A program made the translations under genes and the position numbers. The notes under the pieces are model-generated. The model was given only the letters and a program-made list of their open reading frames with translations, made no database searches and had not been told where the DNA came from. 32,000 bases of DNA from Longivirga aurantiaca (lineage in GTDB: Bacteria > Actinomycetota > Actinomycetes > S36-B12 > CAIYMF01), in contig NZ_JBHSTI010000008.1 in the NCBI RefSeq assembly GCF_042660085.1, positions 1,020,001-1,052,000 of the forward strand, written 5' to 3'. Positions within the stretch are counted from its first letter, which is position 1. Every line of letters begins with the position of its first letter. Shown here one piece after another: positions 5,618 to 31,854 of this stretch.

Positions 5618-6571
5618 GTGCGAGCCGCCTCGCGGCCCCGGAACACCCGGACCCTCGCCCGGGCGGCTGTCGCGCTCGCCCTGGTGAGCCTCGTCGCTGC
5701 GTGCACGACGTCGCCGGCGCCCGAGCCCAGCGTCCCCACGTCGACCACCTCCCCGCCGACGAGCCCAGCACCGACCACCTCCGCGCCGACGAGCCCAGCA
5801 CCGACCACCTCGGCGCCCACGACGCCGACGCCGACGACCACCACGCCGACCACGCCGGCCCCGACCAGCAGCAAGCCGTCGACGCCTGCACCGACCACGC
5901 CGTCACCCACGGCGACTGCCGTGCCTGCCTGGCTCGTGGGCGAGGACGTGCGCCGCGTGCCCACCTCCCGCAAGGTCGTGGTCCTCACCTTCGACGGCGG
6001 CGGCAACGCGGCCGGTCTCGCGAGCATCCTCGCCACGCTGGAGGCCGAGAAGGTGCCCGGCACGTTCTTCCTCACCGGGCGCTGGGTGCAGGTGTATCCC
6101 CGTGAGGCGCAGGCGATCGCCGACGCCGGCCATGTGATCGGCAACCACACGATGACCCATCTGCACAGCACGGCGGTCCCCGATTCCGTTCTGCTGAAAG
6201 AGATCCGGGACGCCGCCCTCACGATCCGCGCGGCGACCGGCGTCGACCCACGTCCATGGTTCCGCTTCCCGTACGGCGAACGCACGGAAGCCGACGTCCG
6301 GCTCGTCAACGCGCACGGCTACGTCTGCGTGAGCTGGGGCCTCGACACACTCGGCTGGCTCGGCAGCTCGCGCGGCACGGCCGCGGACGTCACCAGGCGG
6401 GTCGTCGCCGCGCTCCAGCCCGGGCTCATCGTGCTCATGCACGTCGGGGCCAACCCGGACGACGGCACCACGTACGACGCCGACTCGCTCGCGGCCACGA
6501 TCGCGGCGCTGCGGGCGCGCGGCTACACGTTCGCGACGGTGACCGCCCTGCTCGACCGGCCGCAGCGCTGA
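5618..6571 (+). CDS. Polysaccharide deacetylase (NodB domain) lipoprotein with PT-rich linker
   Basis: GTG start lies 7 nt after AGGAGG. The signal peptide has a lipobox (LVSLVAAC). The PT linker includes a 30-bp tandem duplication at 5755-5814. NodB motifs: LTFDGGG and GNHTMTH. Confidence 0.88.
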   Translation: MRAASRPRNTRTLARAAVALALVSLVAACTTSPAPEPSVPTSTTSPPTSPAPTTSAPTSPAPTTSAPTTPTPTTTTPTTPAPTSSKPSTPAPTTPSPTATAVPAWLVGEDVRRVPTSRKVVVLTFDGGGNAAGLASILATLEAEKVPGTFFLTGRWVQVYPREAQAIADAGHVIGNHTMTHLHSTAVPDSVLLKEIRDAALTIRAATGVDPRPWFRFPYGERTEADVRLVNAHGYVCVSWGLDTLGWLGSSRGTAADVTRRVVAALQPGLIVLMHVGANPDDGTTYDADSLAATIAALRARGYTFATVTALLDRPQR

Positions 6572-15088: not shown

Positions 15089-16240
15089 GTGCGGATCGTC
15101 CACATCTCCGACTGCTACCCGCCTCGGCTCGGTGGCATCGAGACCCAGGTGCGGGCGCTCGCCGTGCGCCAGGCGGCCGCCGGCCACGACGTCCACGTCA
15201 TCACCGCGACGCCCGGCGAGACGATCCGCAACGGCACCGAGATCCTCGACGGTGTCACGGTGCACCGCACCACGTTCAAGCTCCCCGCCGACCTCCCCGT
15301 GCACCCGCGCGTCACGAGCGTCATCGGCGACCTCCTGAAGCCCGGGGGAGCGGCGGCGGACGCCGATGCGGTGCACGTGCACGGCGGCGTCGTCTCGCCG
15401 TTCGCCTATCCGGGCATGCGCGTGGCCCGCAAGCTCGGGCTGCCCACGGTGCTCACGATCCACGGCGTCTGGGGCGGCGTGTTCCAGCCGACCGCGAGGC
15501 TCACCGAGGGCCTGCTCAAGTGGGCGCAGTGGGGCGTCGTCCTCAGCGCTGTGTCCGACGCCGCCGCCGACCCGATGCGCAGCGTCGTCGGCGCCGGTGT
15601 GCCTGTGAGCCTCATGCCCAACGGCATCGACGTCGACCACTGGCGCGTCCAGCCCGTCGCGGGCGACCCGAACGAGACGCGCCTCATCGCCGTCATGCGC
15701 CTCGCCCCGCGCAAGCGCGCGATGGCGCTCGTGCAGATGGCGCACGGCGCGAGCCGCATGCTGCCGAGCGGCAGGCGTCTGCGCCTCACGATCGTCGGCA
15801 GCGGCCCCATCACCGCGCAGGTGCAGAGGTACGTCGCCAAGCACGGGCTCACCGCCGGCCGGTTCGTCGTCGACCTGCCCGGACGCCTCGCGCCCGACCA
15901 GGTGAAGGCCGCGCTCGCGGCGTCCGACGCGTTCGTCGCACCGGCCAAGCTCGAGTCGTTCGGGATCGCGGCCCTCGAGGCGCGTACGGCGGGGCTTCCC
16001 GTCCTGGCGTACGCCTCCACCGGCATCCGCACGTTCGTGCACCACGAGGTCGAGGGCCTCCTCGCGCGCGACGACCGGCAGATGGTCGACAACATCTGCC
16101 GCATCGCGTCCGACGTCGCCCTGCGCGAGGCCATCACCGCGCACAACCGCAGCACCGAGCCGGCGCAGTCGTGGCCGCACGTGCTCGAGACCGCCGAGGC
16201 GCTGTACGCCGAGGCCGCGCAGCAGACCGCCCGCCCCTGA
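15089..16240 (+). CDS. Glycosyltransferase family 4 (GT-B, retaining)
   Basis: GTG 15089 gives (M)RIVHISDCYPPRLGGIE, a typical GT4 N-terminus. The C-terminal E-X7-E region is ESFGIAALEARTAGLPVLA. The track ORF from 14591 is a run-on. Confidence 0.85.
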   Translation: MRIVHISDCYPPRLGGIETQVRALAVRQAAAGHDVHVITATPGETIRNGTEILDGVTVHRTTFKLPADLPVHPRVTSVIGDLLKPGGAAADADAVHVHGGVVSPFAYPGMRVARKLGLPTVLTIHGVWGGVFQPTARLTEGLLKWAQWGVVLSAVSDAAADPMRSVVGAGVPVSLMPNGIDVDHWRVQPVAGDPNETRLIAVMRLAPRKRAMALVQMAHGASRMLPSGRRLRLTIVGSGPITAQVQRYVAKHGLTAGRFVVDLPGRLAPDQVKAALAASDAFVAPAKLESFGIAALEARTAGLPVLAYASTGIRTFVHHEVEGLLARDDRQMVDNICRIASDVALREAITAHNRSTEPAQSWPHVLETAEALYAEAAQQTARP

Positions 16241-16261
16241 CCGCGCCGTCCAGGTAGGTGC

Positions 16262-16423
16262 GCGGCGATTCCGTCGCAGAGCGCACGCTCGTTACCCGGG
16301 TAAGGAGGCACCCGCCTAGCTGAGCGGCGATTCCGTCGCAGAGCGCACGCTCGTTACCCAGGTAAGGAGGCACCCGCCTAGCTGAGCGGCGATTCCGTCG
16401 CAGAGCGCACGCTCGTTACCCAG
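16262..16423 (+). repeat. Array A: 62-bp tandem repeat, 2 full + 1 partial copy
   Basis: Unit: gcggcgattccgtcgcagagcgcacgctcgttaccc(g/a)ggtaaggaggcacccgcctagctga. Copies at 16262-16323 and 16324-16385 are 61/62 identical; a 38-bp partial copy lies at 16386-16423. Confidence 0.9.
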
Positions 16424-16462
16424 CTTCGCGGTCCGACCCCTGACCGGGCCGTCCAGGTCTCC

Positions 16463-16522
16463 GAGTTACTGCCCACATGGTCGCTGAAGACGACCTCTCC
16501 GCGACCATTCGGGCAGTAACTC
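16463..16522 (+). other. 60-nt composite hairpin just upstream of dapF
   Basis: GAGTTACTGCCC (16463-16474) pairs with GGGCAGTAACTC (16511-16522). An inner stem pairs ATGGTCGC (16477-16484) with GCGACCAT (16501-16508). The loop is 16 nt. The ATG of track ORF 16477 sits in the inner stem. Confidence 0.6.
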
Positions 16523-16575
16523 GCGGAACACCAGCGGGAGCGGACGGCGGGCGCGGCTCGACTACCATCGGCGGC

Positions 16576-25406: not shown

Positions 25407-27575
25407 GTGGACGCGCTGCGCGGCGCGTGCCGCCAGGGCTGGTTGGATCAGGGGGTGAGCACCCCCGACGACGCCGACGAGCCCTCCGGCGTCGAGCGTG
25501 GCCCGACGGTGACGCGCCCCAAGAAGTCGTCGTCTGCGAACAAGAAGAGCGCCCCCGAAGCCTCGGTGGCCGAGGCGCTGGCAGCGGCCGTGGGCGGGCT
25601 CGACGGCGAGGGCGAGGACCGCCCGGGGCAGCTGCAGATGGCCGAGGCGGTCGCCTCCGCGCTCGGTGGCTCCGGTCACCTGCTCGTCCAGGCCGGCACC
25701 GGCACCGGCAAGTCGCTCGCCTACCTCGTGCCGGCGATCCTGCACGCGACGTCGCCCGAGCGCCGCGTGGTCGTCGCCACCGCCACCCTGGCGCTGCAGC
25801 ACCAGCTCGTGAGCCGCGACCTCCCACGCTTGGCGGACGCTCTCGAGCCCGTGCTGGGGCGGCGTCCGACGTACGCCGTGCTCAAGGGACGGCACAACTA
25901 CCTCTGCCTCGACCGGCTGCACCGCGGGGTGCCGGACGACTCCGACGACGATGCGCTGTTCGCCGCGCCCACCACCGTGCTGGGCAAGCAGGCCAAGGAG
26001 CTGCGCGAGTGGTCGGACGACACCGAGACCGGAGACCGCGACGACCTCCCCTTCGCCGTCGACGGGCGCGTGTGGCGCGCGGTGTCGGTGAACGGCCGCG
26101 AGTGCGTGGGCGCTGCCAAGTGCTCCTACGGCCAGGAGTGCTTCGCCGAGGCCGCTCGTGCCAAGGCGGTGCAGTCGCAGGTGGTGATCACCAACCACGC
26201 GATGCTTGCGATCCACACGCTCGACAACGTGCCCGTGCTGCCCGAGCACGACGCCGTCGTGATCGACGAGGGGCACGAGCTCGTCGACCGCGCGACGGCC
26301 GCGGTGTCGTCCGAGCTGTCGGGCCCGCTCGTCGAGCGCGCGGTGCAGCGCTCGCGCCGGCTCATCGAGGCCGACCTCGCCGACCGGCTCGACTTCGCCG
26401 CCGAGGCGCTCGGGATCGAGCTCGCGCTCCGCGCCGAGGGGTCGACGTCGTCGATCAGGCTCGAGGAGATCACGGGCTCGCTGCTGCTCGCGCTCGCCTC
26501 GGTGCGCGACACCACGCACGCGGCGATCACGGCGTTGAACGGCGCGATGAGCTCGGCGAAGGACGACCCCGAGGCGCTCGCGACCTCCACCCGCGCGCGC
26601 GGGCTGCTCACCGAGATCCACGACGTCGCCGGCGCGCTGCTCGAGATGGACGACGAGGACGTCGTGTGGATCGACACCGGCGACCGCCGCGCGCCCGTGC
26701 TCAAGCTCGCGCCGCTCTCGGTCGCGGGGCTGCTGCGCACGCAGCTGTTCGACACCTCGCGCGTGGTCGTCACGTCGGCCACGCTGCAGCTCGGCGGCTC
26801 GTTCGAGCCCGTCGCACGGTCGTTCGGCCTGCCGCTCGACGGCACGTCGTCCGCCGAGGGTGCCTGGACCGGCCTCGACGTCGGATCGCCGTTCGACCAT
26901 GCGCGCCAAGGGATCCTGTACGTCGCCACTCGCGTGCCGCCGCCGGGGCGCGGCGGCACCGACGACGCCGCGATGGAGGAGCTGGCCGACCTGATCGGTG
27001 CGGCGGGTGGTCGGACCCTGGCGCTGTTCTCGTCGTGGCGCGGCGTCGAGAAGGCCGAGGAGGCGCTCGGCGAGCTGCTGCCCGACCGTCTCCTCGACCG
27101 CAAGATCGTGCCGCTCGACGTGCCGGTCTACGTGCAGAGGCGCGGCGACTCCGTGGCCGACCTCGTGTCTCGCTTCTCGGCTCACCCGCGGTCGGTGCTG
27201 CTGGGCACGCTCTCGCTCTGGCAGGGCGTCGACGTGCCGGGGGAGGCGTGCCACCTCGTGGTGATCGACCGCATCCCGTTCCCGCGGCCGGACGATCCGC
27301 TGGTCGCCGCGCGATCGCGCTTCGCCGAGGAGCACGGGTCGAACGGGTTCACCGCGGTCTCGGTGCCGCGCGCGGCCCTGCTGCTCGCCCAGGGCGTCGG
27401 GCGGCTCATCCGTACCTCGTCCGACCGCGGGGTCGTGGCCGTGCTCGACCCGCGGCTCGCGACGTCCGGCTATGGGCCGTACCTGCGCAAGAGCCTGCCG
27501 CCGTTCTGGTTCACCACCGACGGTGCGCTCGTCCGCCAGAGCCTGACGCGCCTCGACGAGCTCGCCTCCGGCTGA
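25407..27575 (+). CDS. dinG: ATP-dependent DNA helicase, DinG/XPD (Rad3) family with Fe-S cluster cysteines
   Basis: Walker A QAGTGTGKSLAYL and DEGH box (VVIDEGHEL). Four Cys lie in the Fe-S insertion (YLCLD, GRECVG, AKCSY, QECFA). C-terminal helicase motifs LFSSW and GLWQGVDVPG-like (SLWQGVDVPG). GTG 25407; in-frame GTG 25455, after AGGGGG, is an alternative start. Confidence 0.9.
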   Translation: MDALRGACRQGWLDQGVSTPDDADEPSGVERGPTVTRPKKSSSANKKSAPEASVAEALAAAVGGLDGEGEDRPGQLQMAEAVASALGGSGHLLVQAGTGTGKSLAYLVPAILHATSPERRVVVATATLALQHQLVSRDLPRLADALEPVLGRRPTYAVLKGRHNYLCLDRLHRGVPDDSDDDALFAAPTTVLGKQAKELREWSDDTETGDRDDLPFAVDGRVWRAVSVNGRECVGAAKCSYGQECFAEAARAKAVQSQVVITNHAMLAIHTLDNVPVLPEHDAVVIDEGHELVDRATAAVSSELSGPLVERAVQRSRRLIEADLADRLDFAAEALGIELALRAEGSTSSIRLEEITGSLLLALASVRDTTHAAITALNGAMSSAKDDPEALATSTRARGLLTEIHDVAGALLEMDDEDVVWIDTGDRRAPVLKLAPLSVAGLLRTQLFDTSRVVVTSATLQLGGSFEPVARSFGLPLDGTSSAEGAWTGLDVGSPFDHARQGILYVATRVPPPGRGGTDDAAMEELADLIGAAGGRTLALFSSWRGVEKAEEALGELLPDRLLDRKIVPLDVPVYVQRRGDSVADLVSRFSAHPRSVLLGTLSLWQGVDVPGEACHLVVIDRIPFPRPDDPLVAARSRFAEEHGSNGFTAVSVPRAALLLAQGVGRLIRTSSDRGVVAVLDPRLATSGYGPYLRKSLPPFWFTTDGALVRQSLTRLDELASG

Positions 27576-27596
27576 GCGTCCACCGACCTCTCGCCC

Positions 27597-27785
27597 GCAG
27601 CCGGGTAACCAGGGTGCTCTCTACGACGGATTCGCCACTCAGCCACCGCGCGGGCCCCGAAGCTGGGTAACCAGGGTGCGCTCTACGACGGATTCTCCAC
27701 TCAGCTATCGCGCGGGCCCCGCAGCCGGGTAGCCAGGGTGCGTTCTACGACGGATTCGCCACTCAGCCAGCACACCCGCGCGCCG
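27597..27785 (-). repeat. Array B: 62-bp tandem repeat, about 3 copies, same family as array A but inverted
   Basis: The (c/t)cgggta(a/g)cc landmarks recur at 27601, 27663 and 27725, a period of 62. The B2 unit is 37/43 identical to the reverse complement of the array A unit over gggtaac...ctcagcta. Confidence 0.85.
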
Positions 27786-27926
27786 GTCGTACGGGGTGCG
27801 GGGTACGCCGTCCGGTGGGCGGTCGATCCGAGGCTCGTGCGCGTCAGGTGGTTTGCGCGCTCCGCGACCGGGGAGCACAGGGTCATGCGGTGACGCGTGC
27901 TGTCGCCCCGATGAGCAGGAGCAGCC

Positions 27927-28805
27927 ATGACCTACCAGCCCGAGCGCGACGGATTCAGCGTCGCCCGTTCGAACGCCGACACCCAGGACGACCGCCCCGT
28001 CGTCGTCGACGACGACGGCACCACCCGCACCGCCGACGACGCGCACCTGGTCGACGACACGCGCACCGATCACGTCGCCAGCGAAAGGCTGGAGACCGAC
28101 CGCGACGCTGGCCGGCACACTAGGGCGACGGACGCCGAGGATGCCCACACCGTGGTCGCCGGCGACCCGCGCGCCGTCCGTGGCCGCCGTGTCGACACCG
28201 TCGCGACGACGATGATGGCGCCCTCTGCCGTCGTCGCCCGCGAGCGTGCAGCGTTCGGCGGCATCAAGTGGGGCTCGGCGTTCTTCGGCTGGCTCAGCGC
28301 GATGGGCCTCGCCGTCATCCTCACCGGCCTCGTCGCCGGCGCTGGCACGGCACTCGGCATCGCCAACGACGTGAACGGCTCGGATGTCGTGGGCGACGTG
28401 ACCCGCGGGAACGCCTCGACCATCGGCGTCGCCGGTGCGATCGCCGTACTTCTGATCATCCTGGTCTCGTACTACGCGGGCGGCTACGTCGCCGGCCGCA
28501 TGGCCCGCTTCGACGGTGCCCGCCAGGGCCTCGCCGTCTGGCTGTGGTCGATCGTGATCGCCGTCATCGTCGGCGTCGTCGCCCTCGTGGCCGGGAGCCA
28601 GTACGACGTGCTCGGCAACCTCAACGTGTTCCCGCGCCTGCCGTTCGGCGACTCCGAGCTGAGCACAGCAGGCGTCATCGCGCTGCTCGCGACGGTCGTG
28701 GTCAGCCTGCTCGGCGCCATCCTCGGCGGACTCGCGGGGATGGGCTTCCACCGCAAGGTCGACGCCGTGGCGTTCGACCCCGAGCCCGTGACCGTCTCCG
28801 CCTGA
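27927..28805 (+). CDS. Membrane protein of unknown function with long acidic N-terminal region
   Basis: ATG lies 6 nt after AGGAG. The first ~105 aa are Asp/Thr/Arg-rich and low-complexity. Four hydrophobic helices follow, starting at FGGIKWGSAFFGWLSAMGLAVIL. Confidence 0.7.
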   Translation: MTYQPERDGFSVARSNADTQDDRPVVVDDDGTTRTADDAHLVDDTRTDHVASERLETDRDAGRHTRATDAEDAHTVVAGDPRAVRGRRVDTVATTMMAPSAVVARERAAFGGIKWGSAFFGWLSAMGLAVILTGLVAGAGTALGIANDVNGSDVVGDVTRGNASTIGVAGAIAVLLIILVSYYAGGYVAGRMARFDGARQGLAVWLWSIVIAVIVGVVALVAGSQYDVLGNLNVFPRLPFGDSELSTAGVIALLATVVVSLLGAILGGLAGMGFHRKVDAVAFDPEPVTVSA

Positions 28806-31086: not shown

Positions 31087-31854
31087 CTACATGCTGGCCA
31101 GGATGGCCCGCTCGGCCACGTCGGGGCCGCCGGACATCCAGTAGGCGATGCCGGCCCGCTCGGCCACGTCGGGACCGCCGGACAGCACCGGGACGAGCCC
31201 TGCGCGCTCGGCCACGTCGGGGCCACCGGACTTCCAGTAGCCCGGCACCGAGGTCTTCGCGAGGATCGCGCGCTCGGCCACGTCGGGGCCGCCGGACAGC
31301 ACCGGGACGAGCCCTGCGCGCTCGGCCACGTCGGGGCCGCCGGACATCCAGTAGCCCGGCACCGAGGTCTTCGCGAGGATCGCGCGCTCGGCCACGTCGG
31401 GACCGCCGGACATGCCGTCATCGAGGGCGGCCGCCAGGGCCATGCGCTCGAGACCGGCGCGCTCCGCGACGTCGACACCGCCGGGGAGCAGGTACTCGAT
31501 GCCCGCGCGCTCGGCCACGTCGGGTCCGCCCGACATGTCCGTGACGACGGGGATGAGCGTGACAGGCGCCGGCGCCGGAGGCGCGGGCGGCTGGGTCTGG
31601 GTCGTCGACATCAGCTGGATCACGATCGCCGCGACCACCATGCCGACGAGGACGACGATGATGAGCCCGACCAGGATCGGGGAGGGACGCGCCGCCGGGG
31701 CGGGCGTCGGAGTCGTGCCGACGGGCGGAATCGTCGGGGACACCTCCACCTTGGGGGTGTCCGTGAGCGCGTGCAGCGACGAGATGTCGTCCGGGACGAC
31801 GGGCTGCTCGTGCAGGGTGTCGAACTCATGCGGGTTCTGCGTGGGAGTACTCAT
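31087..31854 (-). CDS. Single-pass membrane protein with eight SGGPDVAERA repeats
   Basis: ATG 31854 lies 6 nt after GGGAGG. The N-terminal ~57 aa are followed by the TM helix ILVGLIIVVLVGMVVAAIVIQL and a Pro-rich linker. Then come 8 copies of (M/K)SGGPDVAERA(G/I)(L/I), separated by short hydrophobic/aromatic segments, to the C-terminus. Confidence 0.8.
   Translation of the reverse strand: MSTPTQNPHEFDTLHEQPVVPDDISSLHALTDTPKVEVSPTIPPVGTTPTPAPAARPSPILVGLIIVVLVGMVVAAIVIQLMSTTQTQPPAPPAPAPVTLIPVVTDMSGGPDVAERAGIEYLLPGGVDVAERAGLERMALAAALDDGMSGGPDVAERAILAKTSVPGYWMSGGPDVAERAGLVPVLSGGPDVAERAILAKTSVPGYWKSGGPDVAERAGLVPVLSGGPDVAERAGIAYWMSGGPDVAERAILASM

Follow-up and report, generated by a model that had tools for sequence, protein, structure and literature searches.

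The locus analysed here, array B, consists of three head-to-tail units with an exact period of 62 bp, and lies downstream of a dinG-type helicase gene at about 27594–27780 of the window, i.e., the whole stretch of 32,000 nucleotides that was analysed and to which coordinates refer unless a contig is named. Three copies with a 62-bp period directly after dinG had been described in an initial sequence-only reading, and both Tandem Repeats Finder (27594–27769, period 62, 2.8 copies, 89% matches, score 296) and a repeat search (copies at 27594, 27656, and 27718, spacing 62 and 62, the second and third 90% and 87% identical to copy 1) agree with this description. By direct reading of the sequence, the landmark GGGTA recurs at 27603, 27665, and 27727. 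The dinG stop codon occupies 27573–27575, and the array begins ~22 nt later, 152 nt ahead of the next start. The features of this region are as follows, with G000 denoting the genome that carries array B, and G007, G009, G018, G021, G042, and G043 the other genomes compared.

25407..27575, + strand: dinG-type helicase gene (Pfam DEAD and Helicase_C_2 domains; open reading frame list)
27598..27645, + strand: array B unit 1, 48-nt conserved core, columns 4–51 of alignment A1 (nhmmer E 2e-14, covariance model E 7e-16)
27646..27659, + strand: array B linker 1, a near-copy of linker 2, without family-wide conservation (~0.1 bit/column; alignment A1)
27660..27707, + strand: array B unit 2 core (nhmmer E 1.5e-15, covariance model E 6e-16)
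27708..27721, + strand: array B linker 2 (alignment A1, information content)
27722..27769, + strand: array B unit 3 core, the last unit, followed by sequence that is not linker-like (nhmmer E 7e-14, covariance model E 5e-15)
27800..27926, + strand: conserved upstream block of the next gene, taking in 27851–27892 (aligns with the intergenic regions of G018 and G021, both array-free)
27927..28805, + strand: gene 3′ of array B, function unknown (syntenic in G018 and G021)
16255..16429, − strand: array A, three units in the orientation opposite to array B (between a GT4 glycosyltransferase gene and dapF)

Orthologues of dinG in relatives display 81–92% identity, and the gene at 27927–28805 had no match in Pfam or NCBIfam. 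A fourth, degenerate copy had also been suspected at 27851–27892; this segment yielded no match to the family HMM or covariance model, and aligns with array-free relatives. Since the whole of 27800–27926 aligns with both of these relatives, we consider it to be upstream sequence of the next gene and not repeat. This block, common to G018 and G021, includes GGTTTGC and CCGGGGAGCAC, and probably serves as promoter or 5′ leader for the gene at 27927–28805.

Array A was delineated by Tandem Repeats Finder at 16255–16423 (period 62, 2.7 copies, 97% matches). Both arrays had been said to start about 22 nt past a stop codon, which is correct for array B (~22 nt) and incorrect for array A, as the latter, located upstream of dapF, starts 14 nt past the stop codon (16238–16240) of the upstream GT4 gene. 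B units match reverse-complemented A units in an ungapped alignment, and the two arrays therefore represent one family in opposite orientations, as first proposed. The reported identity of 37/43 was likewise recovered, with B2 and A2 differing at 6 positions of the 43-nt stretch when compared by eye on the alignment. Two further observations concern the surroundings of array A. First, two direct copies of a 22-nt sequence (21/22 identical; 16234–16255 and 16437–16458) enclose it, resembling a long duplication of a target site or junction; the first copy includes the stop codon of the GT4 gene. Second, it is adjoined by an unrelated hairpin repeat (16462–16523, 26-nt arms starting with CGAGTTACTGCCC, 88% complementary), further copies of which were found in G000 at C8:2142897, at the orthologous G021 site (there without 62-bp units), and twice 3′ of dinG in G009. 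Elsewhere in the window, a minus-strand ORF without a Pfam match contains a 114-bp tandem repeat (31105–31412, 2.2 copies, 97% identical) that overlaps a 48-bp repeat, and overlapping ORFs at 5735–5907 contain 15- and 30-bp tandem repeats (5–9 copies) rich in CCGACC/ACGCCG, probably coding for a low-complexity linker of the Pro/Thr/Asp type.

To establish the extent of the family, a first profile was built from the six units of arrays A and B and applied with a cut-off of E<1e-3 to the genome (3.67 Mb, 72% G+C, 96% complete). This search, which had been put forward as a check in the earlier reading, did uncover further members: 44 units at 22 loci on eight contigs, about 45 units in all. Orthologous arrays occur in two other species, so that the outcome named in that reading as refuting a functional element, a lack of both members and conservation, was not observed. 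A second profile round based on 41 units added a few partial or hairpin-shaped copies, and the sequence-only covariance model R1 yielded 43–48 matches. Each of the 22 loci includes 1–3 tandem units, always with a period of 61–63 bp. In the gap-free alignment A1 of 40 units, the unit divides into a 48-nt conserved core (columns 4–51, 1–2.8 bits each) and a ~14-nt linker (~0.1 bit/column). The core begins with the palindrome GTTACCCGGGTAAC and ends around CAGCTA, and the linkers are similar inside one array and unrelated from locus to locus. Array B displays the features of this family throughout: B1–B3 match the profile, are arranged head to tail with a 62-bp period, and are intergenic beside a stop codon. 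Array B is thus an ordinary member of a dispersed repeat family and, being a routine copy, should not be taken as a regulatory element of dinG or a recombination device of the dapF–dinG block. The pairwise difference among B units (9–13%) also argues against a very recent origin or fresh insertion of the array.

The anatomy of the unit is suggestive of a hairpin ancestry. At 3 of the 22 loci, the repeat takes a true hairpin form, in which the left 21–23 nt occur twice, inverted, around a 6–10-nt loop. Complementarity between the two halves is weak in the common 62-bp unit: the hairpin register is 52% paired vs 26–37% in slid controls, and its outer nine pairs are 74% paired vs 22–37%. The unit may therefore be read as a degenerated hairpin. 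Units differ in how their left end relates to this structure. The flank CG(A/C)AGC(T/C)GGGTA is common to all three B units, the terminal unit of array A, and the first unit of the array at C8:2142987, which bears out the resemblance previously noted between the tails of B units and the last copy of array A. The B-type left end, AGC(T/C)GGGT, replaces ACCCGGGT; it gives a longer closing stem in pairing with the right end of the same unit, and breaks the palindrome. It had been suggested from the two arrays alone that this B-type unit is ancestral and the tail of A1/A2 derived. Across the family, however, the TTACC of the A1/A2 tail is the consensus (~30/40 units) and forms the palindrome GTTACCCGGGTAAC, the B-type left end (AGCY) is a minority form (8/40 units), and A and B units are equidistant from the consensus (85–89%). 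In addition, the array A site is also occupied in another species, G018, and the array B site is not. The B-ancestral claim is therefore unsupported; B-type ends keep more hairpin closure, and three genomes are too few to tell which left-end type came first. The GGAGG of the A1/A2 tail is a locus-specific linker, in common with the paralogous array at C8:2142985. With TTACC belonging to the consensus palindrome and GGAGG to the linker, the Shine-Dalgarno look of AAGGAGG in this tail appears to be largely a by-product of their juxtaposition.

All loci of the family are intergenic. Wherever the two neighbouring genes are co-directional (10 of 10 pairs), the distance from the array to the upstream stop (−10 to 22 nt) is smaller than that to the next start (37–159 nt), and several other arrays occupy the gap between convergent genes. 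Orientation relative to the abutting gene is mixed, with ~7 arrays in the A sense and 3, including array B, in the B sense. On contig C8, 13 of 15 loci share one orientation, array B being one of the two exceptions; GC skew on this contig was too noisy to place an origin or terminus and to relate the orientation to replication direction. Ten of the 22 loci are clustered within 50 kb (C8 1119424–1169631), a segment that ends at a gene encoding a DUF559 nuclease.

Next, we evaluated the distribution of the family across genomes. Among the genomes searched, it is restricted to three closely related freshwater actinobacteria. Covariance model searches detected it in 3 of 28 genomes of the genus (43–48 matches in G000, 23–31 in G007, and 11 in G018), and in 0 of 16 genomes from other families of the order. 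A scan of 185,579 species genomes (one each) with a degenerate 27-mer from the core matched only the G007 and G018 assemblies, which are labelled "Ca. Nanopelagicales bacterium" and "uncultured Actinomycetes bacterium". A metagenome scan returned two contigs only, and a plasmid collection searched in distant mode had no family match. Most of the G007 and G018 loci are orthologous to G000 loci and differ in copy number: array A includes 3 units in G000 vs 2 in G018, the C8:1147 locus 2/4/2 across the three genomes, the arrays flanking the DUF559 gene 3+2 in G000 vs 3+4 in G007, and the C26 locus 2 in G000 and 1 in each relative. Most loci are old, with little sign of recent movement, which counts against the mobile reading given below. 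Arrays whose copy number varies between species in this way may also provide typing markers for the clade.

The array B site is empty in G018 and G021, with the same flanking genes present (dinG protein identity of 89% and 92%, respectively, and 81% and 69% for the downstream gene). In these two genomes, the gap between dinG and the downstream gene is 235 nt and 210 nt, vs 351 nt in G000. A decayed relic of array B was sought in both empty sites: local alignment against the consensus was not significant (p ~0.07–0.1 in G018, 0.6–0.7 in G021), and nhmmer --max returned nothing. G007 was considered as a third witness and rejected, as the 4.5 kb past dinG are replaced in this genome and the candidate array maps to another site. 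Array B is thus known only from G000, which may reflect either gain there or loss elsewhere.

The replacement in G007 was observed by comparing its contig C60 (L038) with G000 C8:1047576–1052114: the 4.5 kb past dinG, which in G000 hold array B, the gene of unknown function, Rce1-like, Hsp20, and other genes, are exchanged for an unrelated stretch of 2.3 kb, and the breakpoint coincides exactly with the dinG stop codon, the place at which array B begins in G000. A second instance of an array at the edge of a variable segment was found past the window, at C8:1053672–1057181 (about 1672–5181 of L078), where the genes for a GT4 glycosyltransferase and a glycogen-debranching-like hydrolase lie on a 3.5-kb segment of G000. 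Elsewhere, this site is a 62-bp array, with 4 units in G007, 1 in G018, and 2 on a metagenome contig (flank 97.6% identical).

One protein-coding gene has arrays of the family on both sides:

C8:1168579–1169523: AbiEi_4 and DUF559 gene, 314 aa, with an array of 3 units on one side and an equally oriented array of 2 units on the other (AbiEi_4-like HTH and DUF559 nuclease domain)

Its orthologue in G007 (87% identical, dN/dS 0.23) is flanked by arrays in the same manner. More broadly, each of the ten homologues that we examined, from ten genomes of the genus, has a related ~50-nt palindrome on either side, the sequence of which differs in each lineage. The palindromes flanking the G042 and G021 homologues are themselves dispersed, with 75 and 35 BLAST matches, respectively, and the element beside the G043 homologue has its loop and right arm in common with the core of the 62-bp family. 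The closest unit to the B units outside of array B is also found beside the DUF559 gene (89–91.5%). In every case examined, the family is tied to a DUF559 nuclease by position, which is to be read as an association only. Speaking against a simple nuclease–repeat picture, G018 keeps its units without a close DUF559 orthologue (best match 46% identity). The DUF559 protein had no match among solved structures or in NCBIfam. In the literature searched, we found no paper joining DUF559 with REPs or palindromic repeats.

We then compared the rates at which the different parts of the unit change, using positional orthologues in arrays of equal copy number only. Core identity was 86% for G007 (432 nt) and 82% for G018 (288 nt), and linker identity 58% and 55%, respectively; non-orthologous cores are 79% identical between genomes. 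With a synonymous divergence between G000 and G007 ranging from 0.29 (DUF559 gene) to 0.43 (dinG), the cores change more slowly than silent sites, and ~3 times more slowly than linkers. The cores are thus held alike either by selection on each copy or by conversion between copies. Host-serving binding sites, e.g., for a nucleoid-associated or DNA-topology protein, selected at gene ends and phased by 62 bp for cooperative binding independently of mobility or DUF559, would be consistent with this slow change, as well as with the even conservation of the entire 48-nt core in either orientation to transcription and with a period fixed at 61–63 bp despite unrelated linkers. The 12-mer TTACCCGGGTAA also occurs 37 times in the genome with one mismatch allowed, vs ~0.06 expected (our own estimate from base composition). 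However, 36 of these 37 palindromes lie within the family, which leaves no independent use as an operator, and the autocorrelation of information content has no peak at 10–11 nt, so that the conservation is without helical phasing. Given its absence from 25 of 28 congeners, the family cannot fill a general housekeeping role, and array B itself is missing from the same site in two relatives in which the neighbour genes are unchanged. We therefore consider binding sites of this kind an unlikely explanation.

A structured RNA, either a 3′-UTR stabiliser, an attenuator, or a small RNA, transcribed with dinG or alone, is less likely still. Array B is probably co-transcribed with dinG given that it begins 22 nt past its stop, and unit B2, the ends of which provide the best closing stem among the three B units (AAGCTGGGT / ACTCAGCTA), is able to form a 10-bp closing stem. 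REPs of other bacteria are also thought to act partly as RNA hairpins (PMC3733652). Nonetheless, conserved secondary structure with compensatory changes, which the initial reading had asked to be checked, was absent: the RNAalifold consensus of 40 units reached −0.93 kcal/mol with 5 pairs and zero compensatory changes, and covariation on the closing stem and the full hairpin register equalled that of column shuffles. Folding of the B units, singly or as the whole array, does not surpass that of dinucleotide shuffles (z −0.32 to +1.22), and the occurrence of arrays behind the upstream gene in both senses is not what would be expected from a transcribed structure. Rfam had no match at gathering score in the window, with one chance-level match (E 5.6) in 27500–27950, and neither a sigma-70-like promoter nor an intrinsic terminator was found around array B. 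Finally, it is hardly credible that arrays A and B, although mutually inverted, 11 kb apart, and ~86% identical over the core, form a functional pair that inverts or bounds the 11-kb dapF-hflX-GGDEF-dinG block, since the family to which they belong is dispersed over 22 loci, since they have only short exact stretches in common within their 48-nt cores, and since G018 has an orthologue of array A with the same gene order and orientation through dinG yet lacks array B, and G021 has the same order without either array.

Taken together, the reading we favour, with a probability of roughly 70%, places array B in a DNA-level family of non-coding interspersed repeats, confined to one lineage, with REP-like placement and ancestry and a MIRU-like layout, whose arrays change by slippage or unequal recombination and whose cores are kept by protein recognition, most plausibly by the DUF559 nuclease. 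Under this scenario, arrays would grow and shrink in a 62-bp register, and recognition by the nuclease would keep the cores alike. The nuclease may act in a RAYT-like manner by seeding, copying, or converting units, so that the family would probably spread as REPs do, perhaps with the nuclease gene as a helper. The constant 62-bp period combined with unrelated linkers goes beyond simple slippage from single copies and is not explained by it; fixed spacing with free linkers calls for a measuring mechanism.

A more far-reaching proposal, which we put forward tentatively and regard as possible rather than probable, is that AbiEi-HTH/DUF559 nucleases play in actinobacteria the part that RAYTs play elsewhere, with every paralogue keeping or spreading its own hairpin-derived repeats. 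In this clade, the partner palindrome would have turned into a half-palindromic 48-nt core repeated in 62-bp steps. If so, the absence of an array at the B site in two sister species, along with the closeness of the B units to a unit beside the nuclease gene, would make array B a product of this nuclease. Should the link be causal, it would suggest a role for DUF559 proteins and offer an independent example of cohabitation between a repeat and an enzyme. The family is of moderate interest; in the literature searched, we found no REP–enzyme partnership in its phylum, and no paper that combines REPIN, RAYT, and Actinobacteria.

Several known systems offer points of comparison. REPs are 20–40-bp palindromes, located mostly downstream of coding regions, often in tandem, and species- or clade-specific (Di Nocera et al. 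2013, PMC3733652). Like REP/BIME and REPIN–RAYT elements of Proteobacteria, the present family is non-coding, short, clade-specific, and often in tandem, with tens of dispersed copies. Its loci, too, mostly follow genes, with co-directional or convergent ORFs to either side, and some copies flank a gene for a putative cognate enzyme; the units have a hairpin ancestry, with hairpin forms at three loci. Unlike REPs, however, its prevailing unit is not palindromic (52% paired, no covariation), the core is 48 nt long instead of 20–40, and units follow each other head to tail with a fixed 62-bp period. As to the unpaired GTAG or CGTC tag at one end of REPs, 16 of 40 units, none of them B1–B3, close their core with CTAC, which reads GTAG on the opposite strand, and the column carries 0.2 bit. 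The host phylum, Actinomycetota, is absent from the survey cited above (PMC3733652). As for the REPIN–RAYT system, no Y1 transposase (RAYT, PF01797) was detected in the genome, with positive controls matched in 6 of 14 genomes, and the repeat-flanked gene instead encodes an AbiEi-HTH/DUF559 (PD-(D/E)xK-type) nuclease.

MITEs resemble the family in being small, dispersed, and non-autonomous-looking, and the core ends carry imperfect 9-bp terminal inverted repeats. In contrast to MITEs, 17 of 18 loci, including array B, have no target-site duplication above chance level, and the units stand in fixed-register tandem arrays. The search for flanking direct repeats at these 18 loci returned only the 22-nt repeat of array A and the element's own palindrome, and no matching transposase or parent IS was found for the family. 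A CRISPR array was considered and rejected, given that the "spacers" measure 14 nt and, inside any one array, nearly repeat one another, and that 1–3 units occur at 22 loci.

According to the summary in PMC3914561, MIRUs, or mycobacterial interspersed repetitive units, occupy 41 loci as tandem repeats of 46–101 bp. The present family is likewise actinobacterial, with a 62-bp unit in the MIRU size range, arranged head to tail in few copies at many dispersed intergenic loci, and orthologous loci vary in copy number among three species. MIRUs are also said, by Supply et al., to have overlapping small ORFs and translational coupling. Such coupling would not apply here since 62 cannot be divided by three; the likeness to MIRUs described here concerns layout. 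The family further differs from MIRUs in its mixed orientation to flanking genes, its split into a core and a free linker, and its association with a nuclease gene. Overall, it fails the defining features of REPs, namely a palindromic unit and a RAYT, and lacks the duplications of MITEs. With its REP-like placement and MIRU-like layout, it is best filed with the REP/MIRU kind, as a variant thereof.
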